In this document: one piece after another, positions 24,186-55,101 of the stretch | Layout: the number at the start of each line of letters is the position of its first letter | How positions within the stretch are numbered: position 1 is the first letter of the stretch | Origin: an uncultured Actinomycetota bacterium | GTDB lineage: Bacteria; Actinomycetota; Actinomycetes; CAVWCF01 | Direction of reading: 5' to 3' | Assembly: GCA_963753435.1 (NCBI GenBank) | Contig: CAVWCF010000002.1 | Coordinates: 118,410-182,409, forward strand | DNA length: 64,000 nucleotides | Notes under the pieces: generated by a model | The model's database searches: none | Seen by the model: the letters and a program-made list of their open reading frames with translations, nothing else | Told to the model about the DNA's origin: nothing | Translations under genes and position numbers: made by a program

Positions 24186-25256
24186 TCAGCGGTCACTGAC
24201 CCCCGCCTCGTCGAAGGTCGCCATGTCGGCCAACGTCGCGGCTGCCGCTCGCAGAATCGGCACCGCCAGCAACGCTCCGGTGCCTGCACCCAGGTTCAGG
24301 CGCAGGTCCGTGAGCGGCTCCAGCCGAAGCCGCTGCAGGGCCACGGAGTGCGCGGGTTCGGTCGAACGGTGTCCAGCGGCCCACCAGTGCCTGGCCCGGA
24401 AGGACACTCGGTCCGCGAGCAGAGCAGCGGCACCGGACACGACCCCGTCCAGCAGTACCGGGGTGCGGCGGACAGCGGCCTGCAGCAGGAAGCCGGTCAT
24501 GGCGGCGATATCGGCGCCGCCGACGGTGGCCAGCAGTTGCAGCGGGTCGCCGCGGTGCGGACGGCCCCGACGGGCCGCGTCTCGTACCGCTGCAGCCTTG
24601 CGCATCCAACCCGCGTCGTCGATGCCCGTTCCGCGGCCGATCAGGTCCGGCAACTCGCCCCCACCGAGCAGGAATATGAGTGTGGTGGCCGGGGTGGTGT
24701 TGCCGATGCCCATGTCTCCGATCAGCAGCAGATCTGCGCCCGCGTCGATCAGTTCGTCGGCGATGCTGATGCCGTGGCTGACCGCTAGTTCGGCCTCGGC
24801 CGAGCTCATCGCATCAGTGGACCGGATGTCGCCGCTGCCCTTGCGGACCCGCCATCTGGTCACGTCGTCCGGAACGGACTTGCCGACGTAGTCGGTATCC
24901 ACCGCGAGGTCGCGGACGTTGACATTGACACCGGCTACCGCAGCGAGCACGTTGGCGGCGGCCCCGCCGGCCAGGAAGTTGCCCACCATCTGGGCCGTTA
25001 CCTCCGGCGGATAGGCCGAGACGCCGCCGGCGGCGACCCCGTGATCCCCGGCGAAGATGACGAGTTCGGCCCGCTGCGGGGGCGGCGCCGGGCACTGGCC
25101 GCGAACACCGCACCACCATGCGGCGAGGTCCTCCAAGCGGCCCAGCGCACCGGCGGGCTTGGCCAACTGTTGCTGGCGCACGAGGGCCTGCTCCGCGAAG
25201 CGCTCATCCGGCGCGACTATTGCGTCGAAGGCGTTCAGGTCCAAGGGTGCGCTCAC
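24186..25256 (-). CDS. cobT: nicotinate-nucleotide--dimethylbenzimidazole phosphoribosyltransferase (atypical active site)
   Basis: LAKPAGALGRLE, FAGDHGV, GDMGIGNTT, GRGTGID, LLDGVV. The usual RLGEGTG motif reads NLGAGTG. Confidence 0.9.
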   Translation of the reverse strand: MSAPLDLNAFDAIVAPDERFAEQALVRQQQLAKPAGALGRLEDLAAWWCGVRGQCPAPPPQRAELVIFAGDHGVAAGGVSAYPPEVTAQMVGNFLAGGAAANVLAAVAGVNVNVRDLAVDTDYVGKSVPDDVTRWRVRKGSGDIRSTDAMSSAEAELAVSHGISIADELIDAGADLLLIGDMGIGNTTPATTLIFLLGGGELPDLIGRGTGIDDAGWMRKAAAVRDAARRGRPHRGDPLQLLATVGGADIAAMTGFLLQAAVRRTPVLLDGVVSGAAALLADRVSFRARHWWAAGHRSTEPAHSVALQRLRLEPLTDLRLNLGAGTGALLAVPILRAAAATLADMATFDEAGVSDR

Positions 25257-25293
25257 TGCCCCGATCCTCTCGTCAGATCGCGAGTCTGGGGCA

Positions 25294-26085
25294 TCACCGC
25301 ACCGCGACGAACTCAGGCCGCGCATCGAACGCGGCGCGGCGCGCCGTTCGCCGCAGCGTCCGCAGGACCGGACCGGTCAGGAACGCCAGCAGGATGGCGT
25401 TACCGAGTGCGCGTGGGATGTCGAAGCCGAGGGAGGTGACCAAGCAGAACGCGATGAACCGGGCGAGGTTTTCCGTGACCGGGTCGCCCGCCACGAAACT
25501 GATGCCGGAGTCCGCGCCCGCGATGAACGGCCAGAACCAGAGGTTGAGCAGGAACCCGTAGGCAAGTCCGGCGATGAGCCCGTACGACACCAGCAGCCAC
25601 GTCTCCGTCCGGCCCCGGGCCGGTGGCAGCAGTCCGGCGAACAGGCCGATCCAGGCCGCGCCCAGCATTTGAAACGGCAGCCAAGGGCCGATGCCGCCGG
25701 TGATCAGTGCCGAGGCGAACATGCCGAGCGCGCCGAGCAGGAATCCAAAGCCGGGGCCGAGCGCGCGCCCACCGAGGATGACCACAACGAACATGGGCTG
25801 AAAGCCGGTCGCCCCGCCGCCCAGCGGGCGCAACGCTGCGGCGACGGCCGCGAGGACGCCGAGCAGGGCGACCGCCTTGGCATCCAACGAGCCCTCACTC
25901 AGGTGGGCGATGAGCACGGCAAGCAGCAACGGGAGCAGCAGGGCGAACAGCAAGGGTGCATCGGTCGAGTGCGCGAGGTCACTGCCCGGCTCGGCCAAGA
26001 AGGGCCAGCCGAACGCGAGCAGTCCGATGGAACTGACCAGGATCAGGGTGCCGACGCTGCGCGAGGGCATCCGCAGAGCGTTCAT
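25294..26085 (-). CDS. ECF transporter S component (predicted cobalamin-specific, SCO2325-like)
   Basis: Very hydrophobic, AxxxA motif AAVAAALR, LGPGFGFLLG, GGIGPWLPFQM, FDIPRALGN. Last ECF gene of the riboswitch operon. Confidence 0.85.
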   Translation of the reverse strand: MNALRMPSRSVGTLILVSSIGLLAFGWPFLAEPGSDLAHSTDAPLLFALLLPLLLAVLIAHLSEGSLDAKAVALLGVLAAVAAALRPLGGGATGFQPMFVVVILGGRALGPGFGFLLGALGMFASALITGGIGPWLPFQMLGAAWIGLFAGLLPPARGRTETWLLVSYGLIAGLAYGFLLNLWFWPFIAGADSGISFVAGDPVTENLARFIAFCLVTSLGFDIPRALGNAILLAFLTGPVLRTLRRTARRAAFDARPEFVAVR

Positions 26086-27695
26086 GTCGCCGGCTCCAGC
26101 GCCCGCTGCACCTCAAGCGGAGTCAGCCATCGCCCGGGGTGCAGCACCTTGGCGGTCTGCGGCGCGTACGCGGGGGATGCCAGCACCACGTCGCGGGCCG
26201 CCCCGTCCGTGACCACTTCGCCATCGGCGAGGATCACCACGCGGTCGACTGCTTCGGCTACCAACTCGACGTCATGCGTCGACAACAGCACCGCGGTTCC
26301 CTTGTCAGCCCGTTCGCGCAACACCGACACCAGGCGCGACTTGGTCGAGTAGTCCAACCCACGGGTCGGCTCGTCGAGCAGCAACAGGGATGGCTCGGCG
26401 ACCAGGACCACGGCTAGGGCCACGGCCAGCCGCTGCCCTTCGGAGAGGTCGCGCGGGTGTTGCTGCAGGTCGATGTCCGGCGCCAACTCTTGCAGCAGTC
26501 GCAGCGTGGCACCCGCCGCCACGGCCGCGTCGGAATCGGCGGCGGCACACTCGTTCGCCACCGTTTCGGCCCAGAGCAGCACCGCAGGGTCCTGCGGGAT
26601 CAGCCCAACGTGTGACAACAGCTGACGGCCGCGCAGTTGCCTCGGGTCTTGGTTGTCGACCCGGGCTGAACCCGCTGAAGGCGAGACCAGCCCGGTCAGC
26701 AGATTCAGCAGAGTGGATTTGCCGGCGCCGTTTCTTCCCATCAACGCCACAACCTCGCCGGGGAAGAGCGACAGGTCCACATCGCGCAGTGCGACCAGGT
26801 GCCCGTAGCGGACCGAGGCCCGGTTCAGTTGAGCGGCCGGGGGACCGTCGGCCAACGCCTTGGTCGGTGGATCGACGGTCTGCGTCAGGCGCTGGCGCAG
26901 ATCGGCCGAGAAGCGGCGGGCGTCCCGCACCGAAACCGGGACGGGTGACCAGCCGGCCACCTGAGCCAAGCGCACTACTGGCGGGGCCACTGGGGACTGC
27001 GCCAACACGTCCGCCGTGGCGCCGATGACCGGCGCCAGCCCGGCGCCGGGCAGGAGGATGACGCGGTCGGCGAACTGGGCGACGCGCTCCAGGCGATGCT
27101 CCGCCACCAGGACCGTCAGCCCAAGGTCGCTGACCAGGCGCTGCAGCGCCGCGAGCACCTCTTCGGCCGCACCCGGGTCCAGTGCGCTGGTTGGCTCATC
27201 CAGAACCAGCACGGACGGATGCGCGGCAAGCACGGCAGCGATGGCCACTCGTTGCCGCTGCCCGCCGGACAACCCCCGCAGGGGGCGGGCCCGGAGGTCC
27301 GCCAGGCCGAGTAGGTCGAGGTTCTCCTCAACCCGCCTGCGCATGGTCGCCGGGTCCACGCCGAGCGATTCCATGCCGTAGGCGATCTCGTCTTCGACCG
27401 TGTCCGTGACGAAGGCGGCGGCGGGGTCCTGGGGTACGACGCCGACGACGTCGGCCAGATCCCGCGGCCGGTGCTTGGCCGTGTCCCGTCCGGCGACCAG
27501 GACGCGACCGCTGAGGCGGCCACCGGTGAAGTGCGGCACATGACCGTTCACGGCACCGAGCAGGGTTGACTTGCCGGCCCCGGTAGGACCGATGACCAGG
27601 CACAACTCGCCTTCGGCGATCACGAAGTCGGCGTGGGCCAGGGCCGGCGCCGAACTGTCGGAGTAGGTCACGGAGACGTCTTCGAATCGGATCAC
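26082..27695 (-). CDS. ECF transporter duplicated ATPase
   Basis: Two ABC domains: GPTGAGKST/LSGGQRQR/LDEPT and GRNGAGKST/LSEGQR/LDEPTRGLD. Real start GTG 27695 (VIRFEDVSVTY). Confidence 0.92.
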   Translation of the reverse strand: MIRFEDVSVTYSDSSAPALAHADFVIAEGELCLVIGPTGAGKSTLLGAVNGHVPHFTGGRLSGRVLVAGRDTAKHRPRDLADVVGVVPQDPAAAFVTDTVEDEIAYGMESLGVDPATMRRRVEENLDLLGLADLRARPLRGLSGGQRQRVAIAAVLAAHPSVLVLDEPTSALDPGAAEEVLAALQRLVSDLGLTVLVAEHRLERVAQFADRVILLPGAGLAPVIGATADVLAQSPVAPPVVRLAQVAGWSPVPVSVRDARRFSADLRQRLTQTVDPPTKALADGPPAAQLNRASVRYGHLVALRDVDLSLFPGEVVALMGRNGAGKSTLLNLLTGLVSPSAGSARVDNQDPRQLRGRQLLSHVGLIPQDPAVLLWAETVANECAAADSDAAVAAGATLRLLQELAPDIDLQQHPRDLSEGQRLAVALAVVLVAEPSLLLLDEPTRGLDYSTKSRLVSVLRERADKGTAVLLSTHDVELVAEAVDRVVILADGEVVTDGAARDVVLASPAYAPQTAKVLHPGRWLTPLEVQRALEPAT

Positions 27696-28798
27696 ACCGG
27701 CACCTCCTCTCGGCGTTCCACTGCCAGGGGGAGGTTCTGGGGTCGCGGTGGCGCCAGCCAAACCGGTAGTAGCCCGAGGAGGAGACCGAAAGCTGCGACC
27801 GGCGGCAACGTCGGCCACGTCGGCGGGTCCGTGATCGGCGTCAGCCCGGGGGTCGCAGCCACCGCCAAGGCGGTCATGGTGATGGCGGCGGCGGCTCCGC
27901 TGGCTGTCACACCCCACTCCGGCCACGACCAGGGATCTGGCCGGTACCGGGTCCGCAGTTGCCGCGTCCGGCCAAGGCCGAGCCCGGCTACCGCTGTTGC
28001 GGCCCCGAGCGCGAGCAGCGGGAGTCCGAGCGGGCCGGGGGATCCGGCGTCCAGCAGGCCGTAGATGCCGACCAGAACGCCCACGAGGCCGACCAGTGTC
28101 AGCACTGCCGCCACCCGATTGGCGCGCGGTGAGTCCGCCCTGGTGCGTCCGTACCCGCGGGAGTCCATCGCCGCGGCCAGCGCCAGGGACCGTTCCAGTG
28201 CGGCGGTCAGCACCGGCAATGCCGCCGCGGCGGCACCGCGTAGCCCGCGGTCGTTGCGTCCGCGCAGCCGGCGGGCCTTGCGCACCTCCCCAAGTTCCAT
28301 GATCAGCAGGGGAGTGACGGAGAGAGCGACGACGACAGCAACGCCGACCTCGTACAGCGATGCCGGCAGGCTCTTGAGCAGCCGCCGTGGGTCGGCCAAC
28401 GAATTCGCTGCTCCGACGCATGCCAGGACTGCGAACAGACGCAGACCGTCGTAGACGGCGGCCAGCAACTGTGGGGCGGTTACCGGTCCGCCAAGTCGCA
28501 CACCGGCGGCCCAGTCCGGAAGCGGGATCTCCGGCAATTCCAGGAGCACGGAGCCGACGGCCGACGCCCCGAAGACAACTTCGAAGACCACGCGCAGGAC
28601 GACGACCACCACGCCTAGTCGTAGGAAGGCTCCGAAGGATCGACCCCAGGCGGCTGGGCTGCGGTGTACGGAGACCACGACCGCGACGACTCCTACGGCC
28701 AGCGCCAGCAGCAGCGGGTTCGTCGTTCGGCTAACTGCTGCGGCCATGCCGATGGCCCACAGCCACCAGGCGCCGGCGTGCAGCGGTCGTGGGTTCAC
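27692..28798 (-). CDS. ECF transporter transmembrane T component (CbiQ/EcfT family)
   Basis: LHAGAWWLWA, KARRLRG and AMDSRGYG coupling-helix Arg motifs. Start may extend to 28834. Confidence 0.88.
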   Translation of the reverse strand: MNPRPLHAGAWWLWAIGMAAAVSRTTNPLLLALAVGVVAVVVSVHRSPAAWGRSFGAFLRLGVVVVVLRVVFEVVFGASAVGSVLLELPEIPLPDWAAGVRLGGPVTAPQLLAAVYDGLRLFAVLACVGAANSLADPRRLLKSLPASLYEVGVAVVVALSVTPLLIMELGEVRKARRLRGRNDRGLRGAAAAALPVLTAALERSLALAAAMDSRGYGRTRADSPRANRVAAVLTLVGLVGVLVGIYGLLDAGSPGPLGLPLLALGAATAVAGLGLGRTRQLRTRYRPDPWSWPEWGVTASGAAAAITMTALAVAATPGLTPITDPPTWPTLPPVAAFGLLLGLLPVWLAPPRPQNLPLAVERREEVPV

Positions 28799-28811
28799 CA
28801 GGTGCGTCGCT

Positions 28812-29729
28812 TCATCGGGCGCGCCTGCGCGCATAGGCGGCGCCGCCGAGCAGCGCGGTCAGCAGCGCCACGGTCACCAGCAGTCCGGCCGGGGAGCCGG
28901 TGTCGGCTGGTGCCCGCGATGCCGTTGGGTAGGCACCGAGCGCCTCGGCTGCGTCGACCTGCTCGTCCGTTGCGCGACCGGCGGCGGAATCGGTCGGTGC
29001 GGTCGGCGCCGAAGCGGCGGCACTGCTAGTCGGCGTCCCTGGGGTCGCCGCGCCGGGCTCCTGCACCGCCGGATCGCCGGTGCTCGCGGGCGTGCTCGGC
29101 GAGTTTCGGCCCGAACTGGAATCCGCCGCCTCGCTGTTCGCGGCGGTGCGGTTGTTGGGTTGCGCCCCGGCGGCGGGGGAGGTCGGCTTGGGGGTAGGGC
29201 TGGGTTGCGACTGGACCACGACGTCGCCGCATTCTCTGCTCGGGTAGCCGTTGAGGCCACCGATCAGACCGCTGGAGCAGGCGCGCACCGTGGCGACCTT
29301 GCTGAGGACGTCCAAGCCGGTGGCGCTGGTGGCGGCGGTCACGCAGGCTTTGACCGGGGTGTCTGGGGTGCCCGGGGGAGTCTCTCCCGGTGGCGCGTCA
29401 GAGGTGGAGCCGTAGTCGATGACTACCGCGACCCGCTTCTGGCCCTCGAGGGCCTGTTCACCCCGGCAGATCTGGCTGAACAGCCCGGACGCGGTCAGAC
29501 GCGGCGGGTCATCCCCGCCATTCGTCGAGACTCCGAATCGCCACCCCTCGACGGAACCATCCGCTGGGCGGCTGGACGGTCCCACTGGCGCGAAGGACCA
29601 GCTGTCGGCTCCCGGCGTCACCTTCCAGTACTGCCAGTACCGGTACGCCGTCGCGGCCTCCGCCGCAGGGGTCGCCCATACGGCAACTGCCGTCGCGAAG
29701 GCGGCGGTGGCAGCCAACAGCCGCTTCAC
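28812..29729 (-). CDS. SCO2322-like secreted, C-terminally anchored protein
   Basis: Signal peptide (..PAAEA), YRYWQYW..GPSSRPADGSVEGWRF, KRVAVVIDYG, GLIGGLNGYP, Pro/Ser/Thr/Ala linker, C-terminal TM plus RRRAR. Confidence 0.78.
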   Translation of the reverse strand: MKRLLAATAAFATAVAVWATPAAEAATAYRYWQYWKVTPGADSWSFAPVGPSSRPADGSVEGWRFGVSTNGGDDPPRLTASGLFSQICRGEQALEGQKRVAVVIDYGSTSDAPPGETPPGTPDTPVKACVTAATSATGLDVLSKVATVRACSSGLIGGLNGYPSRECGDVVVQSQPSPTPKPTSPAAGAQPNNRTAANSEAADSSSGRNSPSTPASTGDPAVQEPGAATPGTPTSSAAASAPTAPTDSAAGRATDEQVDAAEALGAYPTASRAPADTGSPAGLLVTVALLTALLGGAAYARRRAR

Positions 29730-30970
29730 TGCCGCGAACTCCAGCGCCGGGAGATCAGCACCAGCGCCACCCCGATGACCAGAAGGGCCAGTGCCACCCA
29801 GATCTGTTCGAGCACGGCCCCCGGCAGACCCGAGTCAGCCAGCTCGGTCGGAGTGGCCGCACCGGCGGTTGGGGTGGCATCCGTTGATGTGTCGGGAGTC
29901 GTCGGTGACGCGCCGGGTGGCGTCGGCGCAGCCGTGTTCAACGTTGCCTGAAGTTGGGCAGTGAGGTCGGCGCCCGCGTCCGGGTCGGACACGCCGAGGG
30001 CGACGCCGGCCAGCAGGTAAAGCGCAGCCGCTCCGGGCCGGACCTGGCCGGAACTGTCGGTGATCGCACCGGGAAGGTCCGCGAGCATTGCCGCGTAGAT
30101 CTCGGTGGCCTTGGTCTTGCCGGCGTTGGCGGCAGCGAAAGACATGACGGCGAAGGCGCGCTGGTCGACAGAACTGAAGTTGGCCAGTGGCTGGTTCTCC
30201 AGCCAGTCCGCGGCGGCGAGCGCCGGGTCGGCGAACGGGCCCGGGCACGTGAGGTCCGCAACAGTGTCCGCAAAGGCGACCGGCGCCGGCACGGGATACC
30301 CGCTGCCAGCCGCGGCCGGCAATGCCTGCACGGTTGCCAGCAGGTCGGCCTGGCCGGAGTACGGGGCGATGAACCCGCCGATGTCCAGCGGGTCCGCTGA
30401 GCAGTCGGCCTGCTGTGCGATCAGACCGGAAGCCGTGTCCTGGCCGCTGAACGAGGTCGGATCGAGTCCCAGCGAGATCAATGCGCTGACAGCGAGACCG
30501 GAGGAGTTGGGGTCGGCACCGAAGCCGGGTTGGTACTGGAAGCCACCGGCCCCGTCCAGGACGGTGGCGAGGAAACCGGCTGCGTCGCTGGCCGCGTCGG
30601 TCTCGCCGACCGCCGCCAATGCCATGGCCGCAAGTGCGGTCAAGTTGGAGTCCTCGGCGGTGAACAGCGCGGGGTCGGGGGTGCACGCCGCGTCCAGCGC
30701 GAATCCCATGAATCCGCCGTCGGGGCACTGCTGCTCCAGCAGCCACGCAACTGCCGCGGGATCAACGCTGCCGCCGACGGCATCCAGCGCCAAGATGGAA
30801 AGGGACTGCCGGAACGTGCCGTCGTAGGTGGGGTCCTGGACCCCGTACATACCCACCTTGGCCGGGTCCTCGGTGGTCGCCGACAGCGCGGGCGCTGCTA
30901 GGGCGAATGCTGCGGTGATGCCGGCGGTGACTCCGATCGCGATTCCTCGCGCGATCACTGGAGCGGACAA
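29726..30970 (-). CDS. prenyltransferase/squalene-cyclase repeat (alpha/alpha barrel) surface protein
   Basis: Signal peptide, repeats WLLEQQCPDGGF / LDGAGGFQY..DPNSSGLAVSAL / LIAQQ..GGF, Thr/Pro linker, LADSG + TM + RR tail resembling a sortase signal. Confidence 0.75.
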   Translation of the reverse strand: MSAPVIARGIAIGVTAGITAAFALAAPALSATTEDPAKVGMYGVQDPTYDGTFRQSLSILALDAVGGSVDPAAVAWLLEQQCPDGGFMGFALDAACTPDPALFTAEDSNLTALAAMALAAVGETDAASDAAGFLATVLDGAGGFQYQPGFGADPNSSGLAVSALISLGLDPTSFSGQDTASGLIAQQADCSADPLDIGGFIAPYSGQADLLATVQALPAAAGSGYPVPAPVAFADTVADLTCPGPFADPALAAADWLENQPLANFSSVDQRAFAVMSFAAANAGKTKATEIYAAMLADLPGAITDSSGQVRPGAAALYLLAGVALGVSDPDAGADLTAQLQATLNTAAPTPPGASPTTPDTSTDATPTAGAATPTELADSGLPGAVLEQIWVALALLVIGVALVLISRRWSSRQ

Positions 30971-31029
30971 ACTTCCCCCTCAAGGAAACGGGCTGCGGTT
31001 TCGCCGAGCGCCCGTTGCCACACGACAAA

Positions 31030-31054
31030 CCCTCGATGCCACAGGCATCGAGGG
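31030..31054 (-). terminator. terminator/attenuator hairpin in the cobalamin riboswitch leader
   Basis: ccctcgatgcc-tgt-ggcatcgaggg followed by TTTG on the minus strand, between the aptamer and the first gene. Confidence 0.65.
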
Positions 31055-31076
31055 CGGGGTGTGGGTCTGTTGACCC

Positions 31077-31223
31077 GGCTCCCCCCGCAGTCCTCGACGG
31101 AATTACAGGAGCCACTGATGCGCTCGGTTGGTATCCCGGCTTGCCGCGTGGCACCCAAGGGTGCGCGGCCTACGGTTGCGGGTCAGCGCCGGATTCCGAC
31201 CGGCTTCCCCAACTCCGAGCATC
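31077..31223 (-). ncRNA. cobalamin riboswitch (compact form)
   Basis: Minus strand GGGGAAGCCGGTCGGAATCCGGCGCTGACCCGCAACCGT...GCAAGCCGGGATACC (B12 box), closing helix gatgctcgg..ttgg/ccaaccgagcgcatc, and a downstream ggctcc..ggagcc stem whose loop (tgcgg) complements ccgca. Confidence 0.9.
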
Positions 31224-31293
31224 TGTAGTTGTGGCGCGAACTGTCCCACACGGGTTGTTGGGGGGTCAAAGCACCGACACCTAGGCTGATGGC

Positions 31294-54813: not shown

Positions 54814-54952
54814 ATGTCCGGATCAGTTGTCCGTTTATCGGGTACGTGTCCCACGCGTGTCGCGAGCCTGTTTCGTTCTTACATCACGTTTCGGCTACAG
54901 TCCGGCCAGGCTTCCGCCGTTCCGCCCCCAGACCGGGGGGTGACGGAAGCCT

Positions 54953-55076
54953 CCGCTTAACCGGTCGGCAACGACGCCGACCGGGCCGGGGACCCAAATT
55001 CCCTGGGGTGAATCGGATCCACGGATCCGTAGGGCGCACTTCCCCGCCCGAACCCGACAGCTAACCCGGCAAGCGG
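54953..55076 (+). ncRNA. cyclic di-AMP (ydaO/yuaA) riboswitch
   Basis: ccgct...GCCGGGGACCCA...TGGGGTGAATC...GTAGGG...TTCCCCGCCCGAACCCGACAGCTAACCCGG..agcgg directly upstream of a cell-wall hydrolase. Confidence 0.92.
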
Positions 55077-55101
55077 CCGAGGAAGCGAAGGAGCCGCCCT
55101 C

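Follow-up and report, generated by a model that had tools for sequence, protein, structure and literature searches.

The vitamin B12 carriers of animals (transcobalamin, intrinsic factor and haptocorrin) combine an alpha6/alpha6 barrel with a beta-grasp-type domain, and the available text of Bloch et al. 2017 (PMC5599065) reports that the halves of human transcobalamin, when expressed separately, assemble only with cobalamin and that the beta domain binds cobalamin alone. In bacteria, the available sections of Burroughs et al. 2007 (PMC1796856) describe a transcobalamin-like clade of the SLBB (beta-grasp) superfamily, DUF4430, as predicted B12 scavengers; these are secreted or anchored proteins, often fused to an alpha/alpha toroid and encoded in operons with CbiO-like and CbiQ-like genes, and their hosts usually lack B12 synthesis. 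The lsa1836-1840 genes of Latilactobacillus (Lactobacillus) sakei encode the S component, double ATPase and T component of an energy-coupling factor (ECF) transporter, followed by the transcobalamin beta-like Lsa1839 and alpha-like Lsa1840, two extracellular proteins that are proposed to pair as a heterodimer and to feed S; from deletion and overexpression, the accessible part of the preprint assigns the system to heme (Verplaetse et al., bioRxiv 10.1101/864751). ECF-CbrT of Lactobacillus delbrueckii transports cobalamin and cobinamide, and its cluster has an extra gene, cbrS (Santos et al. 2018, PMC5997447, available text). Here, we describe an operon on the minus strand of a 64,000-nucleotide (nt) stretch of an actinobacterial genome (the window, meaning the whole stretch). 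On balance we favour reading it as a riboswitch-led ECF operon that imports complete B12, with two surface proteins, A (SCO2321-like) and B (SCO2322 family), predicted to catch the vitamin first. ECF importers, as described, do without an extracellular binding protein; if our reading is true, a dedicated B12-regulated capture pair would revise that picture. The general layout and the idea are already published, in the 2007 prediction and in the L. sakei system; added here are the findings that the two halves match in their permutation, that detached A genes have B12 regulation of their own and that the two proteins also occur naturally fused, together with a genome that is predicted to need the system.

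The operon runs from a cobalamin riboswitch through A, B, the ECF T component, a double ATPase and the S component to cobT, with the following features:

31109..31234, minus strand: cobalamin riboswitch aptamer RF00174 (45.1 bits against a gathering score of 31.5, full model length)
31030..31054, minus strand: leader hairpin of 11 bp, then TTTG (present in minimum-free-energy and centroid folds; candidate expression-platform element)
29726..30970, minus strand: gene A, SCO2321-like, 414 amino acids (NF053823, E 3e-37, below cut-off)
28812..29729, minus strand: gene B, SCO2322 family, 305 amino acids (NF040672, above cut-off)
27692..28798, minus strand: ECF T component (PF02361 CbiQ, E 1.1e-6)
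26082..27695, minus strand: fused double ECF ATPase, A-A' (two ABC_tran stretches)
25294..26085, minus strand: ECF S component, 263 amino acids (PF12822, E 4.9e-12)
24186..25256, minus strand: cobT, nicotinate-nucleotide:5,6-dimethylbenzimidazole phosphoribosyltransferase (TIGR03160 and PRK00105, both above cut-off)

Start and stop codons overlap by 4 nt at A/B, T/ATPase and ATPase/S, and a gap of 37 nt separates S from cobT. The inferred start of T is the GTG at 28798, with an ATG at 28834 as the alternative. The best NCBIfam matches of the double ATPase, TIGR04521 and TIGR04520, are both under cut-off, and cobT also matches DBI_PRT (E 1.5e-123). The original prediction, made from the sequence alone, had named a riboswitch, two exported and C-terminally anchored proteins, ECF T, double ATPase and S, and cobT; all are present in that order, although the aptamer reaches 31234, slightly past the end predicted for the operon. 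The transporter genes were likewise rightly named: they encode an ECF with a dedicated module, in which a CbiQ-type T (PF02361), two ABC domains (ABC_tran) and a PF12822-type S all lie in adjacent genes.

The RF00174 match in the leader is the sole one in this actinobacterial genome (2.17 Mb, 98% complete) and, going by the RNA family, scarce B12 would permit expression of the operon. The leader's 11-bp hairpin (31054-31030) may serve as a control element; it is absent from the output of a scan for terminators with a U-tail, and a promoter and terminator scan gave nothing. For comparison, 180 related loci were assembled, of which 20 were hand-picked and 160 came from further matches; some are near-duplicates, and kin among them are not independent. 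We searched the upstream DNA, which was sufficient in 159 loci, for the window's 40-nt riboswitch core with up to 8 edits allowed. The core is present in 143 of the 159 and in none of the 270 controls (0/159 reverse-complement, 0/111 ATPase-internal), and the predicted link to B12, seen as co-occurrence with cobalamin riboswitches across genomes, is supported. At the Rfam gathering score a cobalamin-clan element is found in 9 of the 20 hand-picked loci, and T, ATPase and S follow downstream of B in 95 of the 98 loci with sufficient DNA. The operon is real and widespread and probably imports B12; we regard inward transport of a corrinoid, specifically complete cobalamin, as very likely.

A different cargo, heme or another tetrapyrrole, is suggested by L. 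sakei lsa1836-1840, which has the same five-part layout and whose deletion lowered iron uptake from labelled hemin 5- to 8-fold according to the accessible text (bioRxiv 10.1101/864751). However, a cobalamin riboswitch leads the operon here, in most relatives and at the detached A genes described below, the genome encodes B12 enzymes and yielded no other importer, and the accessible L. sakei passages report no B12 test and leave heme-versus-cobalamin specificity open. We consider this cargo improbable.

Some related loci depart from the common layout. In L050 (G317:C1:669000-685000) two tandem A-B pairs stand ahead of one ECF, with four cobalamin riboswitch matches within 16 kb. L053 and L080 contain A and B with cobT next, and no ECF genes were detected in either locus. 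The operons of L040, L043, L044 and L049, which belong to one family of relatives, immediately precede the RNase P RNA gene.

The B12-dependent enzymes encoded in the genome are MetH, three methylmalonyl-CoA mutase subunits and NrdJ, the last being the only ribonucleotide reductase found at 98% completeness; a search of the genome gave no class I small subunit and no NrdD. The same genome search gave no CobN, CobU or CobS, and no match to Peripla_BP_2 (BtuF-type; none of any kind), SbmA_BacA or ABC_membrane_2, with BtuM not searched for. Since no CobN, CobU, CobS, BtuF-type or BacA-type gene was found, the operon is likely the genome's B12 importer. We infer that the organism requires a complete cobamide for DNA synthesis and that the operon is the sole candidate importer found, absence from an incomplete genome being no proof.

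The presence of cobT could point elsewhere, namely to a transporter whose main cargo is a precursor (cobalt, cobinamide or a lower-ligand base) from which the cofactor is assembled, the cobT product acting downstream. Consistent with this, cobT directly follows S, relatives carry cobU in the same block and T matches the CbiQ family. Yet no CobN, CobU or CobS was found in the genome, so there is no known route to completion, and precursor import, which we rejected on this ground, is highly improbable. In 27 related loci cobT comes after S at a distance of 0.5-1.5 kb, and 6 of the 10 open reading frames scanned between S and cobT in relatives are metallo-beta-lactamase-CobU fusions. The operon here has no intervening CobU fusion gene and keeps cobT, although the genome search gave no CobU or CobS. 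With the fusion gene missing and no CobS found, cobT is likely the remnant of a cobU-cobT salvage block and offers no evidence for import of a precursor. Examples of the fusions are L051:12452-13912, L079:12255-13673 and L083:12483-13865, together with three others; speculatively, their metallo-beta-lactamase domain may add a phosphatase-like step in cobamide salvage.

Protein B consists of a signal, a domain of ~148 residues (29657-29214), an Ala/Pro/Ser/Thr stalk of ~108 residues, a transmembrane (TM) segment (~28889-28833) and a basic RRRAR tail, and it scores 137.2 bits against the SCO2322 family NF040672 (cut-off 85). Relatives of B, mostly from other actinobacterial classes, have the same two sequence blocks in reverse order, and a profile of B in window order matches these unpermuted relatives at 98.9% over one block. 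The unpermuted relatives in turn match a DUF4430 profile (27 sequences) at 94.6% in hhalign (E 7e-8, 93 columns). The two best Protein Data Bank (PDB) matches of that DUF4430 profile, both weak, are 3u7z (E 0.0095) and the haptocorrin beta domain (E 0.067). The predicted model of B has a mean predicted local distance difference test score (pLDDT) of 94.8, and in a wide structural search 4 of the 11 entries are beta domains of transcobalamin, haptocorrin or intrinsic factor, aligned to model residues 70-147 (Z 2.5-2.6, root-mean-square deviation (rmsd) 2.6-3.0, 57-63 residues). These alignments are restricted to the second half of B, as the permutation predicts, and sequential aligners cannot span a permutation. 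PDB sequence searches with the B profile and with unpermuted B gave no result, and an atlas search with B gave only SCO2322 clusters, at scores <0.9. By this chain of profile matches, with a weak direct structural match, B is probably a circularly permuted DUF4430/transcobalamin beta domain, and the ancestry proposed for it at the outset is supported, being visible only with the halves read in swapped order. Judged from such sequence relationships, B would probably bind a corrinoid.

Protein A has a hydrophobic N-terminus or signal, a barrel at about residues 31-345 (~30880-29935), a 33-residue Pro/Thr/Ala linker and a C-terminus made up of LADSG (29842-29828), a TM segment (~29806-29750) and RR. 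Long Pro/Thr/Ala stalks had been predicted on both surface proteins, which is right for B but not for the short linker of A. Against the SCO2321 equivalog NF053823, A reaches 128.3 bits with a cut-off of 300 and is hence homologous but outside the equivalog. Its sortase-like tail scores 14.9 bits against the LAVTG model (cut-off 27), and the genome has two sortases; an LPxTG-like motif occurs in 46 of 98 anchored A proteins and in 0 of 119 anchored B proteins. The A proteins of L038, L065, L094 and L242-L245 have no TM segment but a Pro/Thr-rich tail whose short terminal motif closes with YAG, YTG or FTG, possibly another sorting signal.

The predicted model of A (pLDDT 96.2) has 12 helices that form an alpha6/alpha6 barrel, the fold it was expected to have. 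In fold searches it most resembles terpene cyclases, AprG and GH76 hydrolases (top Z 21.2, rmsd 4.0, 242 aligned). Class II terpene cyclases of the squalene-hopene type have DxDD as their catalytic motif. There is none in the sequence of A, and the motif occurs anywhere in just 1 of 120 and 3 of 31 relatives; as an exported protein without DxDD, A was rejected as a terpene cyclase. It has a conserved acidic motif of its own, D46-P-T-Y-D50 with R54 and Q55. A, too, occurs in two block orders, with the window's blocks swapped relative to some relatives. A looser scan with PF01122 matched 4 of 19 chosen A relatives (E 1e-5 to 0.12) in a single consistent register: in window order the C-terminal block corresponds to profile positions 65-121 and the N-terminal block to 137-257, and the unpermuted relatives are collinear. 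One PF01122 match of an A relative stands at cut-off. This register gives a weak hint that A may be a permuted relative of the transcobalamin alpha domain. PF01122 matched 0 of 301 genomes, a result that is uninformative since the controls were equally blank. An atlas search with an A relative gave cyclase/prenyltransferase-repeat clusters, and a PDB sequence search with the junction block of A gave no result.

Block order could be classed in 140 loci (L038 was reclassed by eye from its match order, and 10 were classed by a motif rule); the other 40 were excluded as truncated, single-gene or ambiguous. The classes of A and B agree in all 140, as 121 window-order pairs and 19 unpermuted pairs. 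On a tree of the S component (57 of 104 rows after thinning) the permutation label changes four times, at least two of them forced, so that A and B may have travelled together from one ECF module to another. This tree does not support a single origin for the permuted form. Three of 59 longer B homologues are A-B fusions (P0187, P0205 and P0209): P0187, one sequence, reads signal, barrel, linker, B domain and anchor, and in P0205 and P0209 the B domain comes first and two barrels come after it. A is missing from 4 of the 20 hand-picked operons, and in two of those genomes it is located elsewhere. The detached A genes of these two genomes and three kin have their own cobalamin-clan riboswitch in 5/5 cases (E 3e-5 to 6e-4, one above the gathering score). 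A lacks a C-terminal TM segment where B has one in 35 of the 140 loci (~3 of them artefacts), and the 10 B tails scored as lacking it prove near-threshold or frameshifted on inspection. The part that stays constant and anchored is thus B, and A is optional. Their synteny, the domain order that they share and the fusions all support a functional coupling, and we lean slightly towards A cooperating with B.

In a competing explanation B12 is bound by B and imported by the ECF, but A is independent and forms no lid; it may, for example, be an enzyme or scaffold with which corrinoids are released or processed extracellularly. That the closest folds of A are enzymes, that it has an acidic motif of its own and that it can be at a separate locus or absent all fit this explanation, but the lack of DxDD, the PF01122 matches in register, the fusions with B and a domain order that is always the same as that of B speak against it, and we consider an independent A rather unlikely.

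Other riboswitches were seen in passing. In L243-L246, tandem glycine riboswitches lie divergently ~1 kb from the cobalamin riboswitch of the detached A gene, and elsewhere in the window there is a c-di-AMP (ydaO) riboswitch at 54944-55090 on the plus strand (84.9 bits).

In the mechanism that we propose for the capture pair, stalk-tethered B would be the primary binder by virtue of its permuted transcobalamin-beta-type domain, as its homology suggests. The barrel of A would serve as a lid over the bound vitamin, dispensable but increasing the affinity, and, by analogy with the separately expressed halves of human transcobalamin, A and B would associate only with B12 present. The vitamin would then be handed to S, which is the weakest step, and T and the double ATPase would drive it inside by the general ECF mechanism. 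Direct hand-off from the surface proteins to S is put forward tentatively. Instead, A and B may be a surface reservoir or buffer that releases B12 to the medium near the cell, where S captures it alone. ECF-CbrT binds B12 at a nanomolar dissociation constant and transports it without an extra protein, as the available text reports (PMC5997447), and very tight binding of the transcobalamin type, with the sub-picomolar affinity given in the accessible part of PMC5599065, would impede transfer. Set against this, A-B and T-ATPase-S are tightly packed as one unit, with B and the ECF genes adjacent in 95 of 98 loci, and a mere reservoir appears unlikely to us. The capture pair can be stated in a fuller form, in which Streptomyces and many related actinobacteria would have a two-protein transcobalamin with both halves permuted together; the anchored beta half would catch B12, the secreted or wall-bound alpha half would snap on only with the vitamin, and the loaded clamp would deliver directly to S, here as the sole way in for the cofactor that the only ribonucleotide reductase needs. 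This full picture is possible, and we regard it as doubtful.

A number of results weigh against the reading that we favour. The sole experimentally studied system of such layout, that of L. sakei, is tied to heme in the accessible text, and ECF-CbrT works in vitro without a surface protein according to the available part of PMC5997447. Methionine synthesis in the organism may be independent of B12, as judged from two PF01717 (MetE-type) matches in the genome. For B, Foldseek with the predicted model gave no match, and unrelated Cmr2 chains (Z up to 3.9) rank above or level with its beta-domain matches in the wide structural search. B's own profile matches DUF4430 at just 48%, over its second half alone, and a direct match to PF14478 (DUF4430) was found neither for B nor in the genome nor in any of 19 unpermuted B relatives. 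As for A, the barrel expected of a transcobalamin alpha half is there, but its best structural matches are terpene cyclases, and neither fold search has transcobalamin in its 50 best rows. Squalene-cyclase models match 102 of 120 A relatives and PF01122 only 3 of 120; at E 0.01, PF01122 matches 0 of 31 unpermuted A relatives. Finally, no A was found in two 100% complete genomes that retain B and the ECF, and the obligatory two-part clamp of the original prediction is hence too strong. A split capture pair, in the form of a transcobalamin-like clamp feeding an ECF, is plausible but less new than had been implied (compare PMC1796856 and bioRxiv 10.1101/864751).

If true, the reading would shed light on the competition for trace B12 among actinobacteria of soil and fresh water, would give the uncharacterised Streptomyces genes SCO2321 and SCO2322 a testable function and would provide a bacterial model of the transcobalamin clamp.

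Among known systems, SCO2321-SCO2325 of Streptomyces coelicolor, which carry the label 'predicted cobalamin ECF CbrTUV', offer a close comparison: Streptomyces loci share the gene order and the block order of A and B, and T, ATPase and S are 52-67% identical to theirs, with the difference that A is under the equivalog cut-off. In the accessible literature the sole match to the SCO2321-SCO2325 tags concerns a cell-penetrating peptide, and a search outside subscription journals and bioRxiv supplements brought up no paper on the permutation of these bacterial proteins or on whether they bind B12. The L. sakei genes lsa1836-1840 form the same five-part set with separate alpha-like and beta-like surface proteins, a likeness judged from the description; the accessible text does not contain the word riboswitch, whereas the operon here has a cobalamin riboswitch, C-terminal anchors on both surface proteins and swapped blocks in both. 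ECF-CbrT is, from its available text, likewise an ECF-type importer but uses a shared ECF module in place of the dedicated one here, and a profile of S (24 sequences) gave no sequence match to solved S components at E up to 10. Compared with the DUF4430 clade, B is without a direct DUF4430 match and has its halves swapped. Transcobalamin itself is one soluble polypeptide taken up through a receptor, in contrast to two tethered proteins next to an ECF, and in fold searches A is no closer to it than to other barrels. Binding by the transcobalamin beta domain alone, as reported in the accessible text, fits a system in which B is always kept and A is optional.

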